This document shows, in pieces, positions 1,017 to 9,906 of a stretch of DNA of 11,178 nucleotides. Source of the stretch: a virus (lineage: Duplodnaviria; Heunggongvirae; Uroviricota; Caudoviricetes); IMG/VR virus record IMGVR_UViG_2671180710_000027; one strand, written 5' to 3'. A model generated the notes under the pieces. The model was not told where the DNA came from and did not search any database. It worked only from the letters and a program-made list of their open reading frames with translations. The stretch's first letter is position 1; each line of letters opens with the position of its first letter. A program made the translations under genes and the position numbers.

Positions 1017-1098
1017 TGCTGGTGGCGGGGGTCGAACCCGCATACATGATCAGCCTGTACAGGCTGGCACCGACTCTACCCGTTGAGCGTACACCAGC
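1017..1098 (-). other. tRNA-like sequence (degenerate; probable attachment-site relic)
   Basis: Minus-strand read gives a perfect 7-bp acceptor stem (GCTGGTG / CACCAGC), a perfect T-arm (GCGGG-TTCGACC-CCCGC) and a D-arm resembling GCTCAGTTGGTAGAGC. The anticodon region is a 5-bp stem with a 6-nt loop inside the palindrome AGCCTGTACAGGCT, spacers are oversized, and no CCA is encoded. Confidence 0.5.
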
Positions 1099-2956: not shown

Positions 2957-3247
2957 TTATCTGGTGTGGTCGTAGTTCTGCCGTAGTCGTTCACCCTCAG
3001 CGCAATGACGCGGTTTTTTAACGCCGCTGGTAGCACAATGCGGGCAGGTCATGACGTGGCTGATATACGCATCACGGGCAGCCAGCCACGCCGCAGACGG
3101 GGCGCACATATCCGCCAGCGTCTGGCCGTTGCTGGTGGTGTTGTCTTCCGGCCATGTTTCGGACTGGTGCGCTTCCTGTAAATCCGGTGCAGGTAATGCC
3201 CGGATAAACTCACACAATGCATCCGGCAGGCTGAATAACTTATGCAT
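2957..3247 (-). CDS. Hypothetical small protein with Cys/His cluster (possible mosaic ORF)
   Basis: 96-aa ORF with ATG at 3245-3247 and no clear ribosome-binding site. Contains CPHC...HC. It carries an in-frame 34-bp segment (3101-3134) nearly identical to part of the helicase gene (4481-4514). Confidence 0.35.
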   Translation of the reverse strand: MHKLFSLPDALCEFIRALPAPDLQEAHQSETWPEDNTTSNGQTLADMCAPSAAWLAARDAYISHVMTCPHCATSGVKKPRHCAEGERLRQNYDHTR

Positions 3248-3670
3248 AAATCTGATGTTCTGAATCGCTGAAAACGTGCGTTTTATGGTGTTTTTTCGTG
3301 ATTTCTGCGTGTTCTGATGTGCTCATTTCGCTGTATCCCTTGTGTGGCGCGGGCTGCGCGTGTGTTTCGGTGTTCTTTTTTGCCGCCAGAAAACGGTAAT
3401 CAGGCATATAAACACGGCTGTAAGCCGCGCCGCGTCTGGCTTCGCGTGATTTTGTGCGCTAAAAAGTGCATTTTTGCCCTTAAAAAGCGTTATTCGTGAT
3501 TCACTGGTAAATGCTCCACATGCCGCGCCATTGCTGGGCTTTTCGCTATTCTGTGTGGTTTTGCTGTTTAACCCGTTTTGCACACTGAAATTGCCTTGCA
3601 TCCAGCGCCACGTAAGGGATTTCCGGGTTTTTATGGTGCGTTTTTTGCCGTGCGTAATATTGTGCAAGTT

Positions 3671-3913
3671 GGTGGGACTGGTGGGAACTGTGGGAACCGC
3701 CTAGAACCACGCGGCTTTCAGTGGTTCCCACCAGTTCCCACGGTGGCTTTTTGTGGGAACCGTGGCGGTTATTTTTTGTTCTCTGTGGTTCCCACCAGTT
3801 CCCGCAGAGTTCCCACTCAAAAACGAACAATAATCATACTGGTGATTTTATTATTTACTGATTTATATATGTTTTATTTTTACGGTTCCCACAGTTCCCA
3901 CCAGTCCCACCAC
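3671..3913. repeat. Iteron cluster with AT-rich core: candidate origin of replication (P4 ori/crr-like)
   Basis: About 11 copies of the octamer GTGGGAAC / GTTCCCAC in both orientations (3671-3698, 3724-3741, 3752-3761, 3789-3816, 3885-3910). They flank an AT-rich stretch at 3817-3884 and lie immediately downstream of the helicase gene. Confidence 0.65.
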
Positions 3914-3946: not shown

Positions 3947-5785
3947 TTATTCATCAATTGCGAATAACAATGCATTCTGGTCGATGGCGTAAACGCGGTG
4001 TTTTTCCCCGTTAACGGAAACGCGTTTTGTGTATCGGCGTTTCCCGTCCGTGTCGCGGTCAACAATCGCGCCAGCATCATCAAGACTGGCCGCTATGCGT
4101 TTCAGGTCGTAGCCGCTGGCCGCCTCACATAGTGCTTCCGGTAAAAACCAGTAAACCCGGTCGCCGTTGCTCCCCGGTCGCCACCATCCGGCGCGGTTGC
4201 TTACTGGTTCGCTGTATGTGTTGCCCCCTTCAAAGCGTGAGGCATGGCGGGCGATAAACCCGGCGACGGCCCGGAGTATTTTCACGTCCTCCGATTGCCC
4301 CCGGCCACGATAGTCCGACCACGCAGCAAACATCGCTTTCACCGCCTCCAGTGCTTCGCCCTGTTTCCACGGCAGAATCCCGGCAGTTATCGCCATTTCA
4401 CCGGCCAGTGCGCACAGTGTGAAACGCGCGGCGGCGCGCGCCTCCTGCCCGGTGCTTACGGGGAATTGTTCGCGCAGTATGGCGTACATATCCGCCAGCG
4501 TCTGGCCGTTGCTGTCGGTGCTGGTGGTGTCACTTTCATTGCGGGAAATCAGCCAGCGCACAAACTCCGGCCCGGCGTGGCCGTAATGGGTGGCCGCATT
4601 ACCGCGCAGCGTTTCGGCAAATTTCCGGCCTGCTCCACGGCGTTCTGTGTCGTTGTCGGGGTTGTGGGGTAGTGCCATTCCGTGGAGGCAGTCAAACGCC
4701 CCGTAAAGCCGCTGTGCCGGAATATCCAGTAACCGCATTTCCTGCCCGGCCTTGATGCGCTGACCACCGCTTTCCATGTGTTTACCCACGGTCATTTCCC
4801 CTGTGGAAATAATCATGGTGCGCCATGTGTTGACCGGGCGGGCCATGCCGGACACCTTGCCACGCTGGCGGCCTGTTCCGTTGCCAAGCTGATAAATCAG
4901 CCCGCCAATATCTCTGGCCGGGGCTTCGCCAATTTCATCCAGTATCAGCGCGGTATCGTTCCGCATGGTCGCCAGCCCTTCAAGCCCGGTGCTGGTGGCG
5001 TTCCAGTTGCGTTTAAAGTTGCGGGGTTCTCCCCATACGCTACAGGCCACCAGCGCCCCCACGCTTTTCCCGCTGGAACTGTCGCCCATGAAATGAAATC
5101 CGCCGCTGTCCACATCAAGCAGCCACAGCAACGGCCCGGCGAGTGATGCACACACTGCCAGCATGGCTACCGGGTTTCCCCGGCATAATGCGGCCACGTT
5201 GTCGCGCCAGCCCTCCGGCGTTCCTGCGGTGGCGTACTCCTGTGAGCCTGCTTCTGTTGACTGAAACACCACATCACCATCACCGATAACCCCGCCCGGC
5301 ATGACAAACAGGGTCGGGGAGTGCCACCCGGTGGCCGTAGCCGCGAGCGCCCGTCGTTTTGGTGCTGACTCCATGATGTATTCGGTCAGTGCCTGCCGTT
5401 GTTTGTAGGGAATGGTAACGCCCATGCGCAGCAGCTCCTGTCGGAGTTCTCCGCCGTCTCCGGCGAGCATTTCCATCGGTGCGGCCCATTCCCGCCACTG
5501 GCCTGACGGCGTGAGAAAACGGAGTAATCGCCCGTAGTTTTCGTCTTTGCTGTCGCTGGTCATGGCGATAACCTCCAGCGGGGAACAGATAAACGTGTCC
5601 GTGTTGGTTGAGTCGCGCACGCCGTGCCAGTAAAGGCCGGGTTTCAGTATCTGGCCGCCGTCCACCTGTACATGCTGCGAATAAGTGGCGTAGCCCGGAC
5701 GTGCCGGGCTGACTTTGGGGTGTTTCTTGCGTGGTGGTTTTCGCTTCCCGGATGTGACCGGGGTTTTAGTGGTTGTCCGGGTCAT
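3947..5785 (-). CDS. Replicative helicase, SF3/P-loop NTPase (P4 alpha C-terminal-like, DUF927-type)
   Basis: 612-aa ORF with Walker A GDSSSGKS and Walker B LILDEIG. Its ATG at 5783-5785 overlaps the primase 3' end by 20 bp. Confidence 0.85.
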   Translation of the reverse strand: MTRTTTKTPVTSGKRKPPRKKHPKVSPARPGYATYSQHVQVDGGQILKPGLYWHGVRDSTNTDTFICSPLEVIAMTSDSKDENYGRLLRFLTPSGQWREWAAPMEMLAGDGGELRQELLRMGVTIPYKQRQALTEYIMESAPKRRALAATATGWHSPTLFVMPGGVIGDGDVVFQSTEAGSQEYATAGTPEGWRDNVAALCRGNPVAMLAVCASLAGPLLWLLDVDSGGFHFMGDSSSGKSVGALVACSVWGEPRNFKRNWNATSTGLEGLATMRNDTALILDEIGEAPARDIGGLIYQLGNGTGRQRGKVSGMARPVNTWRTMIISTGEMTVGKHMESGGQRIKAGQEMRLLDIPAQRLYGAFDCLHGMALPHNPDNDTERRGAGRKFAETLRGNAATHYGHAGPEFVRWLISRNESDTTSTDSNGQTLADMYAILREQFPVSTGQEARAAARFTLCALAGEMAITAGILPWKQGEALEAVKAMFAAWSDYRGRGQSEDVKILRAVAGFIARHASRFEGGNTYSEPVSNRAGWWRPGSNGDRVYWFLPEALCEAASGYDLKRIAASLDDAGAIVDRDTDGKRRYTKRVSVNGEKHRVYAIDQNALLFAIDE

Positions 5786-6809
5786 GCTCCATTTCCCATA
5801 GCATCAAATCGTTAAAGTCGGAAAGGTCTGGTGATGCACCGGGCGGCCATTCCGGGAATGTGACGTAACATCCGGCCAGCAATGCGGCTTCGTTGGCTGC
5901 TCTGGAACCGGGGTTGCCTTTTGATGCCCGGTCATCATCCCCGGCGATAACGAGAGATATGCGCGAGCCGTATCGTTCACGCAGCGCCATAGCCACATGT
6001 TTAAGGTTTCCCGCATTCATGGCACACACCACGGCCATGACGTTCCAGTACTGGAGAAGGGCGGCCCCGGTGGCCCACCCCTCACACACGTAAACGTCAT
6101 GTTCCGGCGCTTCCGGGGCCATCAGGTCAAAGCTCCCCATAACATGGAAAGCCCCCTGCACCTGACCATCACGGAGAAACATTTTTCGACCGTCCGGGCT
6201 GATAATCTGCACGTTCACCACTTCGCCGCATACGTTGTACAGCGGGACAAGCAAATCATTACCCGACTGATACAGATTGCCGGGCTGTAGCCGTTTTTTC
6301 ATGAGATAGGGATGAGAAGGGGTTGCCACCTCCGCCCGGCCAAGCAACTCAAAGGCCCGGCAGGCGGTCAGTTTCTGGCGCTGGTGGCGTTGTTGCTGCT
6401 CCCGCTGGCGGAGTCTGCCCGCCTCCTGTTCTGCGGCCTGTACCCGCACCCGTTGCGCCTCCCGTTGTTCGCGGGTCATTACATCAGGTTTGCCCAGTGC
6501 GGGCAGGCACAGCCCCAGCCTGTCCGCCACAATACGGGCGGCATCAGTCTGACGCACATTCCACAAATAAGCCCCCAGCGCCACAAGGTCGCCGCCGCTG
6601 TCCCCGGTGGCGAAGTCGTGCCAGCATCCGTCCACCAGCGAGACGAAAAAACTGCCCGCGTGACGGTCTGCACGTGTGGGGTTACGGCACACCCATTCAG
6701 TGGCCTGCCGTTTACCTTCGGGCAGCCATTCAGGAACAAGGATTTCCGCATGTTGTGCCGCCACTGCGGCAACGCTGCGGATTGCGTTAATCGTGGCTAT
6801 GTCACGCAT
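5766..6809 (-). CDS. TOPRIM-domain DNA primase (P4 alpha N-terminal-like)
   Basis: TOPRIM motifs VYVCEGWATG and LVIAGDDD. Preferred start is the ATG at 6807-6809 (GGGAGGG upstream, MRDIATINAIR...), not the TTG at 6885-6887 used by the ORF track. Confidence 0.85.
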   Translation of the reverse strand: MRDIATINAIRSVAAVAAQHAEILVPEWLPEGKRQATEWVCRNPTRADRHAGSFFVSLVDGCWHDFATGDSGGDLVALGAYLWNVRQTDAARIVADRLGLCLPALGKPDVMTREQREAQRVRVQAAEQEAGRLRQREQQQRHQRQKLTACRAFELLGRAEVATPSHPYLMKKRLQPGNLYQSGNDLLVPLYNVCGEVVNVQIISPDGRKMFLRDGQVQGAFHVMGSFDLMAPEAPEHDVYVCEGWATGAALLQYWNVMAVVCAMNAGNLKHVAMALRERYGSRISLVIAGDDDRASKGNPGSRAANEAALLAGCYVTFPEWPPGASPDLSDFNDLMLWEMEHDPDNH

Positions 6810-7116
6810 GTTGCCCGCCCTCCCTGATTTCCCCGGTGCGGCAGCGCCAGTTATACGCCTCCACAACCTCACTGAATCCGGCCACAAGTTCAGCCGTAAC
6901 AGCGATGGAATCGCCCAGGCTGCGTAGTTCGCCCATGCTGGGGTCGAGATTGTCGCCCATGCCGGAAAGCAGGCGGCCTGTGCTAATCAGCCCTTCAAGC
7001 AGTTTGCGGGCGCAGTAATCCGCATCATCAAACAGGGCGCGGGCTTCCTGTGCGTCTGCGTTTTTGATGGCCGCAACCAGTAGTTCAGGTATCCGGGTGT
7101 TATACATATCACACAT
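6802..7116 (-). CDS. Hypothetical acidic protein (104 aa)
   Basis: ATG at 7114-7116 overlaps the upstream stop in an ATGTGTGA junction, and its own stop overlaps the primase start in ATGCGTGA. No motif recognised. Confidence 0.55.
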   Translation of the reverse strand: MCDMYNTRIPELLVAAIKNADAQEARALFDDADYCARKLLEGLISTGRLLSGMGDNLDPSMGELRSLGDSIAVTAELVAGFSEVVEAYNWRCRTGEIREGGQHA

Positions 7117-7405
7117 GGCTTACCTCCCCGGCCTGCTGGTCGTAACACTCCATCAGTTCGGCCATACAGCCAATGAGGGCAGGGGCTGTCTGTAGAAATC
7201 CGGCTAATTGGCAGATCTCGTCTCTGGAATAGGTGATGGGGTTTTCGCGTAACTGGCTTCCCTCCAGTGCCTTACCAACAAAGGCAATCCCCGCCAGTAA
7301 ATTCACTCTGTGCCAGTCGGCATCAACGCGCAGAATCCAGTGGCTTTCTTCGTCCGGCATACTGCTCATGGCGGCTTTCATTGACTCACGCAGACAATCA
7401 CGCAT
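7109..7405 (-). CDS. Hypothetical acidic protein (98 aa from ATG 7403-7405)
   Basis: The ORF-track start at 7435 is a TTG. The ATG at 7403-7405 sits in an ATGCGTGA overlap with the upstream stop and has GGGGG 6 nt upstream. Confidence 0.5.
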   Translation of the reverse strand: MRDCLRESMKAAMSSMPDEESHWILRVDADWHRVNLLAGIAFVGKALEGSQLRENPITYSRDEICQLAGFLQTAPALIGCMAELMECYDQQAGEVSHV

Positions 7406-7862
7406 GGCGCGCCCCCTGACGAATACGGGCGACAAAAATCATATGCGCGTGCGGTAGCTGCGCGCGTGCTTCGCGTTCTGTTGCCGCCGTGACGGTAAAG
7501 AGCGAGGTTTGTTTTTCCTGGCACTGCATAAAGCGCCAGACAAAGTAAGGGCGTGCGAATACAGCCATGTGAAAGGCTCCTATGTTTGAGGTAAGGAGTC
7601 TCGCTACTACGCTGCTAAACGGGGTGGCGAGACGTAACGGGGTTAGCAGACTGGCAACATAGAAACCAGCGAGCGCAAAGGCTCCCCCGTCACGCCCCGC
7701 CATAATGCGGGTATGGGTAGGTTTACGGACACAAAAAAACCGCATATCGGAATGTAAGCGGCTGTCCGCTATGTTATTCAGGCTGCTAAACCCGGTCACC
7801 ATGTGGGTGACTCCGGCATCATACAGCCCGAAAGAAGAGGCGATCAACATGTTTTTAAGCAT
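7398..7862 (-). CDS. Ash/Icd-like family protein (long form 154 aa; possible short form 7398-7568)
   Basis: C-terminal 56 aa (MAVFARPYFVWRFMQ...HMIFVARIRQGARHA) is paralogous to the Icd-like protein upstream. The long start at 7860-7862 overlaps the upstream stop (ATGCTTAA). An internal ATG at 7566-7568 has GGAG 8 nt upstream, so the true start is ambiguous. Confidence 0.5.
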   Translation of the reverse strand: MLKNMLIASSFGLYDAGVTHMVTGFSSLNNIADSRLHSDMRFFCVRKPTHTRIMAGRDGGAFALAGFYVASLLTPLRLATPFSSVVARLLTSNIGAFHMAVFARPYFVWRFMQCQEKQTSLFTVTAATEREARAQLPHAHMIFVARIRQGARHA

Positions 7863-8052
7863 GGCTCACCCCCTGAGCCGGAACGCGGCCAGCAAAAAGC
7901 AACACAAAATCACGCGCCAGCATACGGCGGGCGGTTGTTTCGTCGGGTGCGTTGACGGATTCGCGGTGTGGGCGGTCGTTCAGATCGGAACGGCGAACGG
8001 CCAGAAAGTGAAAGGTAAATTCAGGGTGTAACGGGGTTGGGGTCGTAGCCAT
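7855..8052 (-). CDS. Host cell division inhibitor Icd-like small protein (65 aa)
   Basis: MATTPTPLHPEFTFHFLAVRRSD...ARRMLARDFVLLFAGRVP matches the recalled Icd-like pattern. The ATG at 8050-8052 has AGGAGG 8 nt upstream. The 201-aa ORF-track version adds a Pro/Gly/Arg-rich N-terminal extension that I consider non-coding. Confidence 0.6.
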   Translation of the reverse strand: MATTPTPLHPEFTFHFLAVRRSDLNDRPHRESVNAPDETTARRMLARDFVLLFAGRVPAQGVSHA

Positions 8053-8481
8053 TCTGGCAGCCTCCTTTTGCAAATTTAAGGAGTCACCGCCTGAGTTTCC
8101 ACGCTCATAAGGGGCGGTGACGCTGGCGGGGGTGGAAATACCGGCGCAAAAGGAAACCGGCCAGCCTTTCGGCTGCCCCACCAGCGCCACCATAGATACA
8201 GTGCGGGCCTTGCCGCTGTTCATGGTTGCGCGATGGCACGACACAAAAAAAGACGCTGGGCGCGTCTGTGTCGCCTTTTGCTCATTAAACGGGTTTCCAC
8301 GCCCGGCTGGTGGATTTACACCAGCCGGGGAAATATAACGCCCACCAGCGATGGCAGGCAAGCAATATTTGCGGTTGCCGCCCATTCTGTGGGGCGTGTG
8401 GTGGTTGTTTTGGGCGTGAGAACGCCCCGGCCCTGTTGCGGGCCTTTCTGGCATTTTCATGATTAAAATTCTCTGACGGGG

Positions 8482-8688
8482 TTAATTGCGCGTGCTGGTC
8501 GTGCCTTTGCGGTCAGCGAGCCACTGGCGGATAGCGGAAACATCAAAGCGGCTTACGCCATCGCCCAGCTTATCCGGGCTGGGGAATTTACCTTTTTTAA
8601 CCCAGTTCCATAGCGTCGATTCGCTAATCTGAAAATGGTTTATCACCTGTGCCGGGCGCATATAGCCGGATTTGGGTAAGGTATCCAT
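8482..8688 (-). CDS. alpA: AlpA-family phage regulatory / excisionase-like HTH protein
   Basis: 68-aa ORF with an HTH (MRPAQVINHFQISESTLWNWVKKGKFPSP) followed by RFDVSAIRQWL, typical of AlpA/Xis-type proteins. AGAGG lies 9 nt upstream. Confidence 0.8.
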   Translation of the reverse strand: MDTLPKSGYMRPAQVINHFQISESTLWNWVKKGKFPSPDKLGDGVSRFDVSAIRQWLADRKGTTSTRN

Positions 8689-8739
8689 GATTAAAGCCTC
8701 TTACAGTGTTTTGGTGCTGAATGGAGGCTATACGCAAGG

Positions 8740-8773
8740 CAAGAAAAAGTAAAGGCGACTAAATTTAGTCGCC
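8740..8773 (-). terminator. Intrinsic terminator downstream of the orphan gene
   Basis: Perfect 20-bp palindrome GGCGACTAAATTTAGTCGCC (8754-8773), followed on the minus strand by TTTACTTTTTCTT. A T-run also follows on the plus strand, so it may act in both directions. Confidence 0.5.
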
Positions 8774-8857: not shown

Positions 8858-9811
8858 TTATCTTTTTGCTTTTGCGTTTCCGCCCAAAATTTTCCATTCA
8901 TTGGGTAAGCGTCTGGCATCAGATAATATTTTTGCTATTCGTCCCGCGTCAGGTGTTGGGGTGGGATTGCCATCCCAGAACAGATAACCGTGTTTCTCTA
9001 TGGCTTCGGCATGTGATTTAAGTGTCTTGCCAACATCTTTAGGGAAGTGATACGCCACGTACAGGGCAGCCGCGAGAACCTTTTCACGTTCCAGCGCGAA
9101 TCGCTCCACACCGCCGTGTATATCATGCTTTTCCTGATTCCTGTCATCTGTCGGTTGTTCTGTGCGCTGGTAGCCGGGCCTTTGTGCAAGTATTTTTTGC
9201 ATGACCATCATTTCTGAATCGGTAATGCGCAAATTCTTTTTTTCCGGGGCGTTTATCCGGCGTGAGCCGCCACGTGGTGTAAAGGTTGCTGTAACTTTGG
9301 ACAGTGAAGGGGTATCGGTGTACGGTTTTAATGTGAATGTGTCCTGTGCGTGAACGCGCGAGAACTCGGCGTAAGGTACAGTCCATAAGCCATACAGGAG
9401 AACATCCGATACAACCATAAGTTTCCCGTCATGTACCTGCGCGTCACTATGGTTGCTGTCAAAGTAGAACCCGGATTGTGAGTATTGATGGTAAACATTT
9501 CTCCAAATCAATATTGATTCAGGTTCGTTGTCATTGGGGAAAAGCCTGAGTTTCTCCCCTTCTTCCGGTTGTAGTAATTCAGGTGGGAAATAATCGTTTG
9601 TTGCTGGCGCTGAAATACTGGCAATGTTCCACGGCTTGGCCGGATATCCCCACTTGTCGTAATCCGTGTAGCTTTGGCGGTTTATGGAACTTTCCGGGCC
9701 GAAATCAAGTGCGATTTTTATTGTCCCTTTAGCCCATTCAGTCAGTATTTTTTTTTGAGTACACCCCAGTATGCTGGCGGCTGTATCAATAGGGTATGTG
9801 TTTTCATACAT
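8858..9811 (-). CDS. Hypothetical protein (317 aa), AT-rich cargo gene in the integrase-alpA slot
   Basis: Long uninterrupted ORF with ATG at 9809-9811. Composition is markedly more AT-rich than its neighbours. The N-terminus has an HTH-like stretch (IDTAASILGCTQKKILTEWAKG). No catalytic motif recognised. Confidence 0.6.
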   Translation of the reverse strand: MYENTYPIDTAASILGCTQKKILTEWAKGTIKIALDFGPESSINRQSYTDYDKWGYPAKPWNIASISAPATNDYFPPELLQPEEGEKLRLFPNDNEPESILIWRNVYHQYSQSGFYFDSNHSDAQVHDGKLMVVSDVLLYGLWTVPYAEFSRVHAQDTFTLKPYTDTPSLSKVTATFTPRGGSRRINAPEKKNLRITDSEMMVMQKILAQRPGYQRTEQPTDDRNQEKHDIHGGVERFALEREKVLAAALYVAYHFPKDVGKTLKSHAEAIEKHGYLFWDGNPTPTPDAGRIAKILSDARRLPNEWKILGGNAKAKR

Positions 9812-9906
9812 GGTTTACGTTACCTTTGACGCTACCTTAAAAATAAACCGGGGCAGGCGGTAAGGTTTCCCGCTTTTCGCGCCGTCGCGCTATCCCCGGT
9901 ATGTTT

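Follow-up and report, generated by a model that had tools for sequence, protein, structure and literature searches.

C4-type antisense RNAs are matured by RNase P from a primary transcript in P1, P7 and P4, and the stable RNA is about 77-90 nt long. IsrK has been equated with SeqA and C4 with CI (PMC3632133, PMC4825925), and IsrK of Gifsy-1 was described as an activator in trans (PMC4825925). As for P4, PMC10111431 states that full-length Eta is translated only from the upstream late promoter, coupled to the alpA homologue, that its translation prevents termination, that eta is a translated and functionally important gene nested around kil, and that Kil is translated upon read-through (citing Forti 1999). 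This kind of system, the equivalence of IsrK/C4 and SeqA/CI, and the nesting of eta and kil are already published. Here, we analyzed a stretch of 11,178 nucleotides (hereafter the window) from the virus record IMGVR_UViG_2671180710_000027, which contains two adjacent open reading frames (ORFs) for Icd-like proteins. We propose, with a probability of about 0.8, that the region of these ORFs controls immunity and replication in an Escherichia coli integrative island and comprises two tandem antisense-RNA modules of the P4 and P1 types. No description of stacked modules with unlike specificities was found in the literature, a weak negative with most subscription journals outside the search.

The two copies could be aligned over their whole length of approximately 460-490 nt, beyond the ends of the ORFs. 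As shown in Table 1, they shared one layout consisting of a promoter-like site, a leader RNA with the targets a1 and b1, a terminator, a C4/CI-type antisense RNA of approximately 88 nt, the targets a2 and b2, and a small Icd/Kil-type ORF; b2 sits at the ribosome-binding site (RBS) of the short ORF in both modules. The Rfam matches of both C4 RNAs were full-length (RF01695 positions 1-87), and the ATG of the short ORF was located at +57 (copy 1) and +51 (copy 2) from the 3' end of the C4 RNA, in line with the approximately 45-57 nt typical of ORFs of this type. A scan of positions 7000-8750 for sigma-70-like promoters gave only two sites, at the equivalent heads of the two modules; that of module 1 is a candidate counterpart of the constitutive promoter within P4 eta. 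The Rfam RNA genes, the full-length alignment, the promoter-like sites and the terminator together indicated that each copy is a full module. This also bears on the N-terminal extensions of the two ORFs, which were found by Rfam to hold the regulatory RNAs (C4/CI, IsrK/SeqA and a1b1).

Each C4 RNA had perfect 7-9-nt complements at all four of its sites, at matching offsets and on both sides of the RNA in both modules. The recognition words of the modules were unrelated (GTGGAAA/GCAAAAGG in module 1 vs TTAGCAG/AACATAG in module 2), and no cross-module match between C4 RNAs and targets was detected in the window. The module-2 words occurred nowhere else in the 11-kb strand, and the module-1 words occurred at one or two extra chance sites. 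We then compared 69 unique modules from E. coli islands, P1, P7, D6, P4 and viral contigs; matches to a one-gap DNA pattern, mostly due to chance, had been filtered by our own C4 model, leaving approximately 55 real C4 RNAs from 120 loci. All four cognate matches reached at least 7 nt in 75% of the 69 modules, vs 0 of 3852 non-cognate pairings, and 46 distinct a/b specificity pairs were present. The family structure was also well supported, with 98% of cells paired, compensatory changes in 17 of 24 pairs, and none of 500 shuffles as good. At the sequence level, these results showed that the two antisense RNAs have non-overlapping predicted specificities. Furthermore, a relative 97% identical to module 1 (locus L002) carried GTAGGAA for GTGGAAA at a1, at a' (as the complement) and at a2, i.e., six coordinated substitutions among about fourteen differences. 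The difference is a coordinated three-site switch of the predicted specificity.

Table 1. Features of the two modules and their neighbors in the window. All described parts of the locus lie on the minus strand.
Feature	Position	Basis or remark
Module 1 (P4 eta/kil/CI type)		
Long ORF 1, 201 aa, eta-like	7855..8460	spans all module-1 RNA elements; ends as Icd/Kil-like domain 1
Promoter-like site TTGCCT-18-TATATT	8332..8361	inside long ORF 1; consensus match
IsrK/SeqA-like leader RNA 1	8246..8338	Rfam isrK 62.6 bits at 8325-8246 (gathering score 50); c4-a1b1 40.2 bits, under its gathering score
Target a1, GTGGAAA	8300-8294	complementarity
Target b1, GCAAAAGG	8281-8274	complementarity
Terminator hairpin and T-run after leader 1	8267-8251	intrinsic terminator found
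C4/CI-type antisense RNA 1	8110..8197	Rfam RF01695 82.3 bits (gathering score 45); own model R1 95 bits; loop b' CCUUUUGC, single strand a' UUUCCAC (8138-8132)
Target a2, GTGGAAA	8102-8096	complementarity
Target b2, GCAAAAGGA	8071-8063	complementarity; overlaps Shine-Dalgarno AGGAGG (8066-8061)
Short ORF 1, Icd/Kil-like protein 1, 65 aa, P4-Kil type	7855..8052	NF033153
Module 2 (P1/P7 c4-icd type)		
Long ORF 2, 154 aa	7398..7862	spans module-2 RNA elements; ends as Icd-like domain 2; PGAP: Icd-like protein
Promoter-like site TTGATC-18-TATGAT	7818..7847	consensus match
IsrK/SeqA-like leader 2	7733..7824	Rfam c4-a1b1 29.2 bits, isrK 36.6 bits; complementarity
Target a1, TTAGCAG	7789-7783	complementarity
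Target b1, AACATAG	7775-7769	complementarity
C4/CI-type antisense RNA 2	7620..7707	Rfam RF01695 74.0 bits; own model R1 90 bits; loop b' CUAUGUU, single strand a' CUGCUAA
Target a2, TTAGCAG	7618-7612	complementarity
Target b2, AACATAG	7586-7580	complementarity; abuts/overlaps Shine-Dalgarno GGAG (7580-7577)
Short ORF 2, Icd-like protein 2, 56 aa, P1/P7-Icd type	7398..7568	NF033153
Neighboring features		
Integrase	11178-9907	ORF, island order
int-alpA RNA	9835-9900	Rfam RF02996, 64 bits (gathering score 35.8)
317-aa ORF between integrase and alpA-type gene	8858-9811	ORF
alpA-like helix-turn-helix gene, 68 aa	8482..8688	ORF; PGAP 'helix-turn-helix transcriptional regulator'; PHROG 66, excisionase/regulator
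Downstream gene chain ORF98 + ORF104 + toprim primase	5766..7405	start/stop overlaps; PGAP gene table
ORF98	7405-7109	downstream chain
ORF104	7116-6802	downstream chain
Toprim primase	6809-5766	downstream chain

The locus was compared with the three described systems. In P4, the CI RNA and seqA regions match the three Rfam families found in the window, and the order of ORF88 (alpA type), eta/kil, 8-nt overlaps and alpha (primase) is that of the window. The P4 eta ORF aligned with long ORF 1 at 44% identity over 182 aa, and the 8-nt overlaps at eta/epsilon and epsilon/ORF151 are equivalent to the window junctions. P4-type nesting was seen in module 1, where the long ORF starts beside the alpA-type gene and upstream of the internal promoter-like site. 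In contrast, the long ORF of module 2 starts on the ORF 1 stop. P4 has one module, whereas the window has two with unrelated specificities, and kil of P4 is followed by epsilon (PF25738), ORF151 and cnr, whereas unrelated 98- and 104-aa ORFs occupy this place in the window. Since psu, sid and delta were not annotated by PGAP anywhere in the island, membership in the P4 satellite family was rejected as no full fit; judged by this annotation, with the Icd-like genes taken as PF10554 matches, the island falls outside the P4-like satellite definition of PMC8628076.

The c4 region of P1/P7 was approximately 80% identical to the RNA region of module 2 and had the same a1-b1/c4/a2-b2 layout, with b2 over the RBS of icd. 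The a' segment of P7 was identical to that of module 2, but the b specificity of module 2 was unlike those of both P1 and P7, and the extension frame, which is closed in P1/P7, was open in module 2. The immI region of P1 has the ant1/2 antirepressor after icd. No antirepressor gene was found downstream of icd in the window, antA/AntB being present only in the relative L002 and upstream of module 1, and membership in the P1 immI operon (c4-icd-ant) was rejected accordingly. In the Gifsy-1 isrK-orf45-anrP locus, the IsrK family is the one that matches the module 1 leader above the gathering score; like the window, the locus has a short terminated leader complementary to a downstream processed RNA and a small ORF coupled to the next gene (PMC4825925). 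It differs in that the coupled ORF, orf45, overlaps the C4-like RNA and leads into an antirepressor gene, and no Icd/Kil domain has been reported for it.

An earlier note, made from the letters of the window, had regarded the C-terminal domains of the two ORFs as tandem Icd-type paralogues that should be alignable with each other. The short forms matched NF033153 ('phage_ICD_like', cut-off 25 bits) with 73.2 bits (E=1.3e-20) for copy 1 and 55.9 bits (E=3.2e-15) for copy 2, as did P4 Kil, P7 Icd and D6 Icd; both paralogy and Icd type were thereby confirmed at the profile level. The pairwise alignment was weak (BLASTP E=0.024, 27% identity; E=0.006 without composition correction). Weak pairwise likeness together with a strong match to one profile indicated that the homology is real but old. 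Kil is reportedly a 65-aa protein, and from this length we take the C-terminal 65 aa (MATTLTPSHPEF...) of the P4 ORF 8812-8168 to be Kil. Copy 1 showed 54% identity to it over 65/65 residues without gaps (E=1e-19). Copy 2 showed 46% identity to P7 Icd (E=4e-13) and grouped with P1/P7 Icd. Judged by these alignments, the two copies are juxtaposed old lineages, P4-Kil and P1-Icd, and a recent local duplication was rejected because they come from different ancient lineages.

It had also been suggested that the duplication could mean two targets or a regulator/effector pair. Such a reading, in which the proteins are the point of the duplication as two division inhibitors with two host targets or as a regulator and its effector, would fit the match of both short ORFs to the Icd-like profile, their coding-type conservation, and the predicted fold of copy 1, for which an AlphaFold2 model gave a small confident beta-beta-alpha-beta domain (pLDDT 82.8); different partners are also conceivable for proteins of 27% identity. 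We consider it unlikely, however, as each ORF belongs to a complete module that has an antisense RNA of its own, islands exchange entire modules at a conserved 3' junction (see below), and the copies stem from anciently separate lineages rather than from a local duplication. No target is known, and neither a PDB sequence search nor a PDB fold search returned a solved structure resembling the copy 1 model. The suggestion thus found no support, and what demonstrably differs between the copies is the specificity of the antisense RNA. PADLOC reported nothing for the Icd-like proteins or their neighbors.

A word-indexed protein search identified 18 close relatives. The wider family comprised 435 cluster representatives; the domain was at the extreme C-terminus in 136 of the best 150, and 117 of these 136 proteins were longer than 80 aa. 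Eight proteins of 332-632 aa (P0037, P0041-P0044, P0063, P0080 and P0081) also carried the Icd/Kil domain at the extreme C-terminus and had no Pfam match, not even to Phage_ASH; they may be genuine fusions or over-called frames.

Both long ORFs were present as the earlier note had listed them, and each contained an internal ATG preceded by a Shine-Dalgarno sequence, AGGAGG before 8052-8050 in the first and GGAG before 7568-7566 in the second. The ATG of long ORF 2 (7862-7860) overlaps the stop of long ORF 1 as ATGCTTAA, so that the proposed coupling and the plausibility of both forms of the second ORF were upheld. The stops of the short ORFs overlap the next start codon as ATGCTTAA (copy 1) and ATGCGTGA (copy 2), and the ATG of long ORF 1 (8460) lies 21 nt past the alpA stop. 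The 201-aa model had been called almost certainly over-extended. This judgment did not hold, as the model is a homologue of P4 eta and its frame is open.

To read the extensions, stops were counted in the region of approximately 265 nt from a1 to the short ORF ATG, where approximately 3 stops are expected from composition. The frame of the short ORF had no stops in seven island-type clusters (<80% mutual identity), and the other two frames had 1-10. Long ORF 2 had no in-frame stops, and its other two frames had 7 and 6. An eighth cluster (L026) was also stop-free but had no Icd-like ORF downstream. An excess of variable columns at the third codon position was observed only inside the short ORF. 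In the P4/Klebsiella type, the variable columns at codon positions 1, 2 and 3 were 33, 27 and 56 of 64 in the short ORF and 47, 43 and 45 of 89 in the extension; the corresponding values in the module-1 type were 9, 8 and 19 of 66 and 25, 15 and 20 of 90. The amino-acid sequence of the long frame showed no coding-type constraint. We read the short form as a protein under selection, and the long frame as one apparently kept open for read-through by upstream ribosomes, with a peptide whose sequence is set by the RNA genes. As in P4, each of the two starts probably serves a different transcript.

We had first assumed that the long ORFs are pure artefacts of the RNA genes and dropped this assumption after the stop counts and the P4 comparison. 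According to this explanation, the real features are the short ORFs and the RNAs, and the long ORFs are chance open frames across G+C-rich conserved RNA genes that gene callers and PF10554 pick up in error. PF10554 (Phage_ASH) indeed covers exactly the RNA region: it matched long ORF 1 with 94 bits (gathering score 26) over aa 42-148, or nt 8337-8017, and in P4 (L133) it matches an obsolete 'cI protein' ORF over the CI RNA (8168-8584), where epsilon (7888-8175) is PF25738. The missing third-position excess in the extension points the same way, as do the 2-4 in-frame stops in the upstream extension of P1-type phage modules, the former annotation of P1 c4 as a protein-coding gene, and the PGAP flags of several long forms as frameshifted or partial. 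Nevertheless, we regard the explanation as improbable given that the long frame is stop-free in the seven clusters against 1-10 stops in the others, and stays open although the hypervariable a/b sites often hold TAG, TGA or TAA out of frame. The start codons are moreover at coupling positions, beside alpA or over the preceding stop, and PMC10111431, citing Forti 1999, describes P4 eta as a gene that is translated and matters functionally.

We next describe how modules are joined. A GGGGG/GGAGG stretch, 7-9 nt and then ATGnnTRA were found at four successive junctions (7862/7855, 7405/7398, 7116/7109 and 6809/6802), which link short ORF 1, long ORF 2, ORF98, ORF104 and the primase; the first lies between the modules. 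Since the next start overlaps the stop in ATGnnTRA, each upstream ORF ends in H-A or H-V. The module junctions share the motif CAGGGGGnGnGCCATGCnTRA, and a close relative (L003) has module 1 alone, joined straight to the 98-aa ORF. From these two observations, the modules appear to be inserted whole at this place. Arrays were common in the island family. Among 11 sampled loci with a module-2-type copy, a sample biased by the choice of some loci for showing two genes, five had 2-3 C4 modules, five more had a second Icd-like gene lacking a C4 RNA, and one had a single module and no second Icd-like gene. Arrays of 2-3 modules were present in L002, L130, L131, L134 and L096, including one triple array, and one viral contig also held a module pair. 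Both a and b differed in all 7 of 7 adjacent module pairs.

The tandem could instead be a neutral recombination scar of two islands, with one module decaying. The junction motif would favor recombination, L003 has module 1 alone, and the exact module pair was present in only 6 of 5426 complete E. coli genomes. This is the least probable of the explanations considered: both modules are intact in promoter-like site, C4 score, a/b matches, and open short and long ORFs, and arrays of unlike modules recur with different partners, including the triple one.

Several further loci were noted. In L002 (NZ_AP045179), an antA/AntB antirepressor cassette (3040-3876) sits in frame in the beginning of the eta-like ORF, immediately behind alpA; the first 19 codons are retained in the cassette ORF, as is the ...SHA and ATG overlap at its end. 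The N-terminus of eta thus looks like a domain-swapping slot. Extra Icd-like genes without a C4 RNA were present in L132 (3080-3475) and in L135-L138 (about 1280-1975), each preceded by a divergent gene of the YlcI/YnfO family; L132, the only one of these loci that was read, also had repeated TGTGCGCACA palindromes. The C4-less loci look like a protein-repressor version of the switch. Phage D6 (L005) had a weaker C4-like match at 1054-1133 (Rfam 40 bits, own model 35 bits), approximately 470 nt upstream of its main c4, which could be the degenerate member of a tandem in this P1-like phage.

If the modules work like those of P4 and P1, the stable antisense RNA would be derived from transcripts of the internal promoter of each module. 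The RNA would pair with a2/b2 and block translation of the short ORF, leading to termination before the replication genes, and the outcome would be immunity or replication silencing. Transcripts starting in or before alpA would be translated in the long frame, with ribosomes reading through the RNA elements and passing from ORF to ORF at the ATGnnTRA overlaps up to the primase, thereby bypassing both antisense gates. Such read-through from upstream would explain why the long frames are open though the peptide is not conserved. The chain of ORF98, ORF104 and primase is presumed to be the output of the switch. More speculatively, the separate promoter of module 2 and the coupling of long ORF 2 to short ORF 1 should make the opening of either gate sufficient for expression of the downstream genes, and silence would need both RNAs. 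Equally speculatively, stacking would widen the range of incoming relatives that an island can silence and make the island itself less easily silenced.

Several points weigh against the proposed two-module control region. Leader 2 scored below both Rfam gathering scores, and its terminator hairpin is weak, followed by a T-run. The promoter-like sites match the consensus but are no commoner than chance (2 vs 1.3 expected). Long ORF 1 has a weak Shine-Dalgarno sequence, and its start is separated from the alpA stop without overlap. In L008, the sole exception within the seven clusters, the long frame had five in-frame stops, and in L002 a 1-nt deletion fuses ORF 1 to ORF 2 and breaks the long frame. 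The stops in the P1-type modules count here too, indicating that C4 RNAs can function without an open long frame, and the stop-free frames of related sequences are non-independent observations. The steps of transcription, RNA processing, termination and translation are carried over from P4 and P1, and the either-gate logic and the competitive advantage of stacking are our own inference.

With the two-module reading retained, we tentatively suggest, at clearly less than even odds, that stacked, coupled arrays of two or three modules with non-overlapping specificities, swapped whole at CATGnnTRA and capable of rapid three-site change in specificity, constitute a combinatorial RNA incompatibility or immunity system among satellites and phage-plasmids. 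If so, the replication operon would be kept silent only as long as all cognate C4/CI RNAs are present, and a resident array would act against several kinds of incoming relatives, perhaps even P1/P7-like phage-plasmids with which it has half a specificity in common.

The region was 100% identical (1.2 kb compared) to an island that several E. coli chromosomes carry between yicC and dinD. Its order was integrase, 317-aa ORF, alpA-type regulator, two Icd-like ORFs, two small ORFs, toprim primase and a DUF927 protein. The int-alpA RNA lies just 3' of the integrase stop, before the 317-aa ORF, and was also found in the relatives L002 and L003. The 317-aa ORF had no match in Pfam, NCBIfam, PHROGs or PADLOC; since its slot is occupied by an unlike 306-aa protein in a relative, the ORF may be variable cargo. 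No family match was obtained for the 98- and 104-aa ORFs. A tRNA-like sequence at 1017-1098 (minus strand) scored 35 bits with the Rfam tRNA model (gathering score 29) and is annotated as tRNA-Tyr by RefSeq; ARAGORN found no tRNA anywhere in the window, including this position.

The locus has consequences for annotation. Both long ORFs carry the RefSeq name 'host cell division inhibitor Icd-like protein', no RNA feature is listed over the two modules in the RefSeq record of the island, and ORFs of this kind are labelled 'transcriptional repressor' by PHROGs 6928 and 1743. PF10554, which did not match long ORF 2, has been used as the marker of P4 epsilon in counting P4-like satellites (PMC8628076). 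As the matched stretch is a translated RNA region, membership in this family says little about protein function, and what the PF10554 and PHROGs entries model is for the most part an RNA gene in translation. Reports of 'Icd-like proteins with long N-terminal extensions' as effectors in some studies are explained by the nesting of the long and short frames, and transposon hits or deletions in such 'extensions' may remove an antisense RNA. The 'extension' in bioRxiv 10.1101/2023.04.06.535777 may contain C4/IsrK-type RNA genes like those of the window.

With the RNA modules recognized, the interpretation of hundreds of E. coli islands is corrected, and the 46 specificity pairs are a ready set of candidate non-cross-reacting antisense/target pairs. 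If the stacked modules act as separate gates, they would represent a compact natural multi-input RNA control of mobile-element replication.

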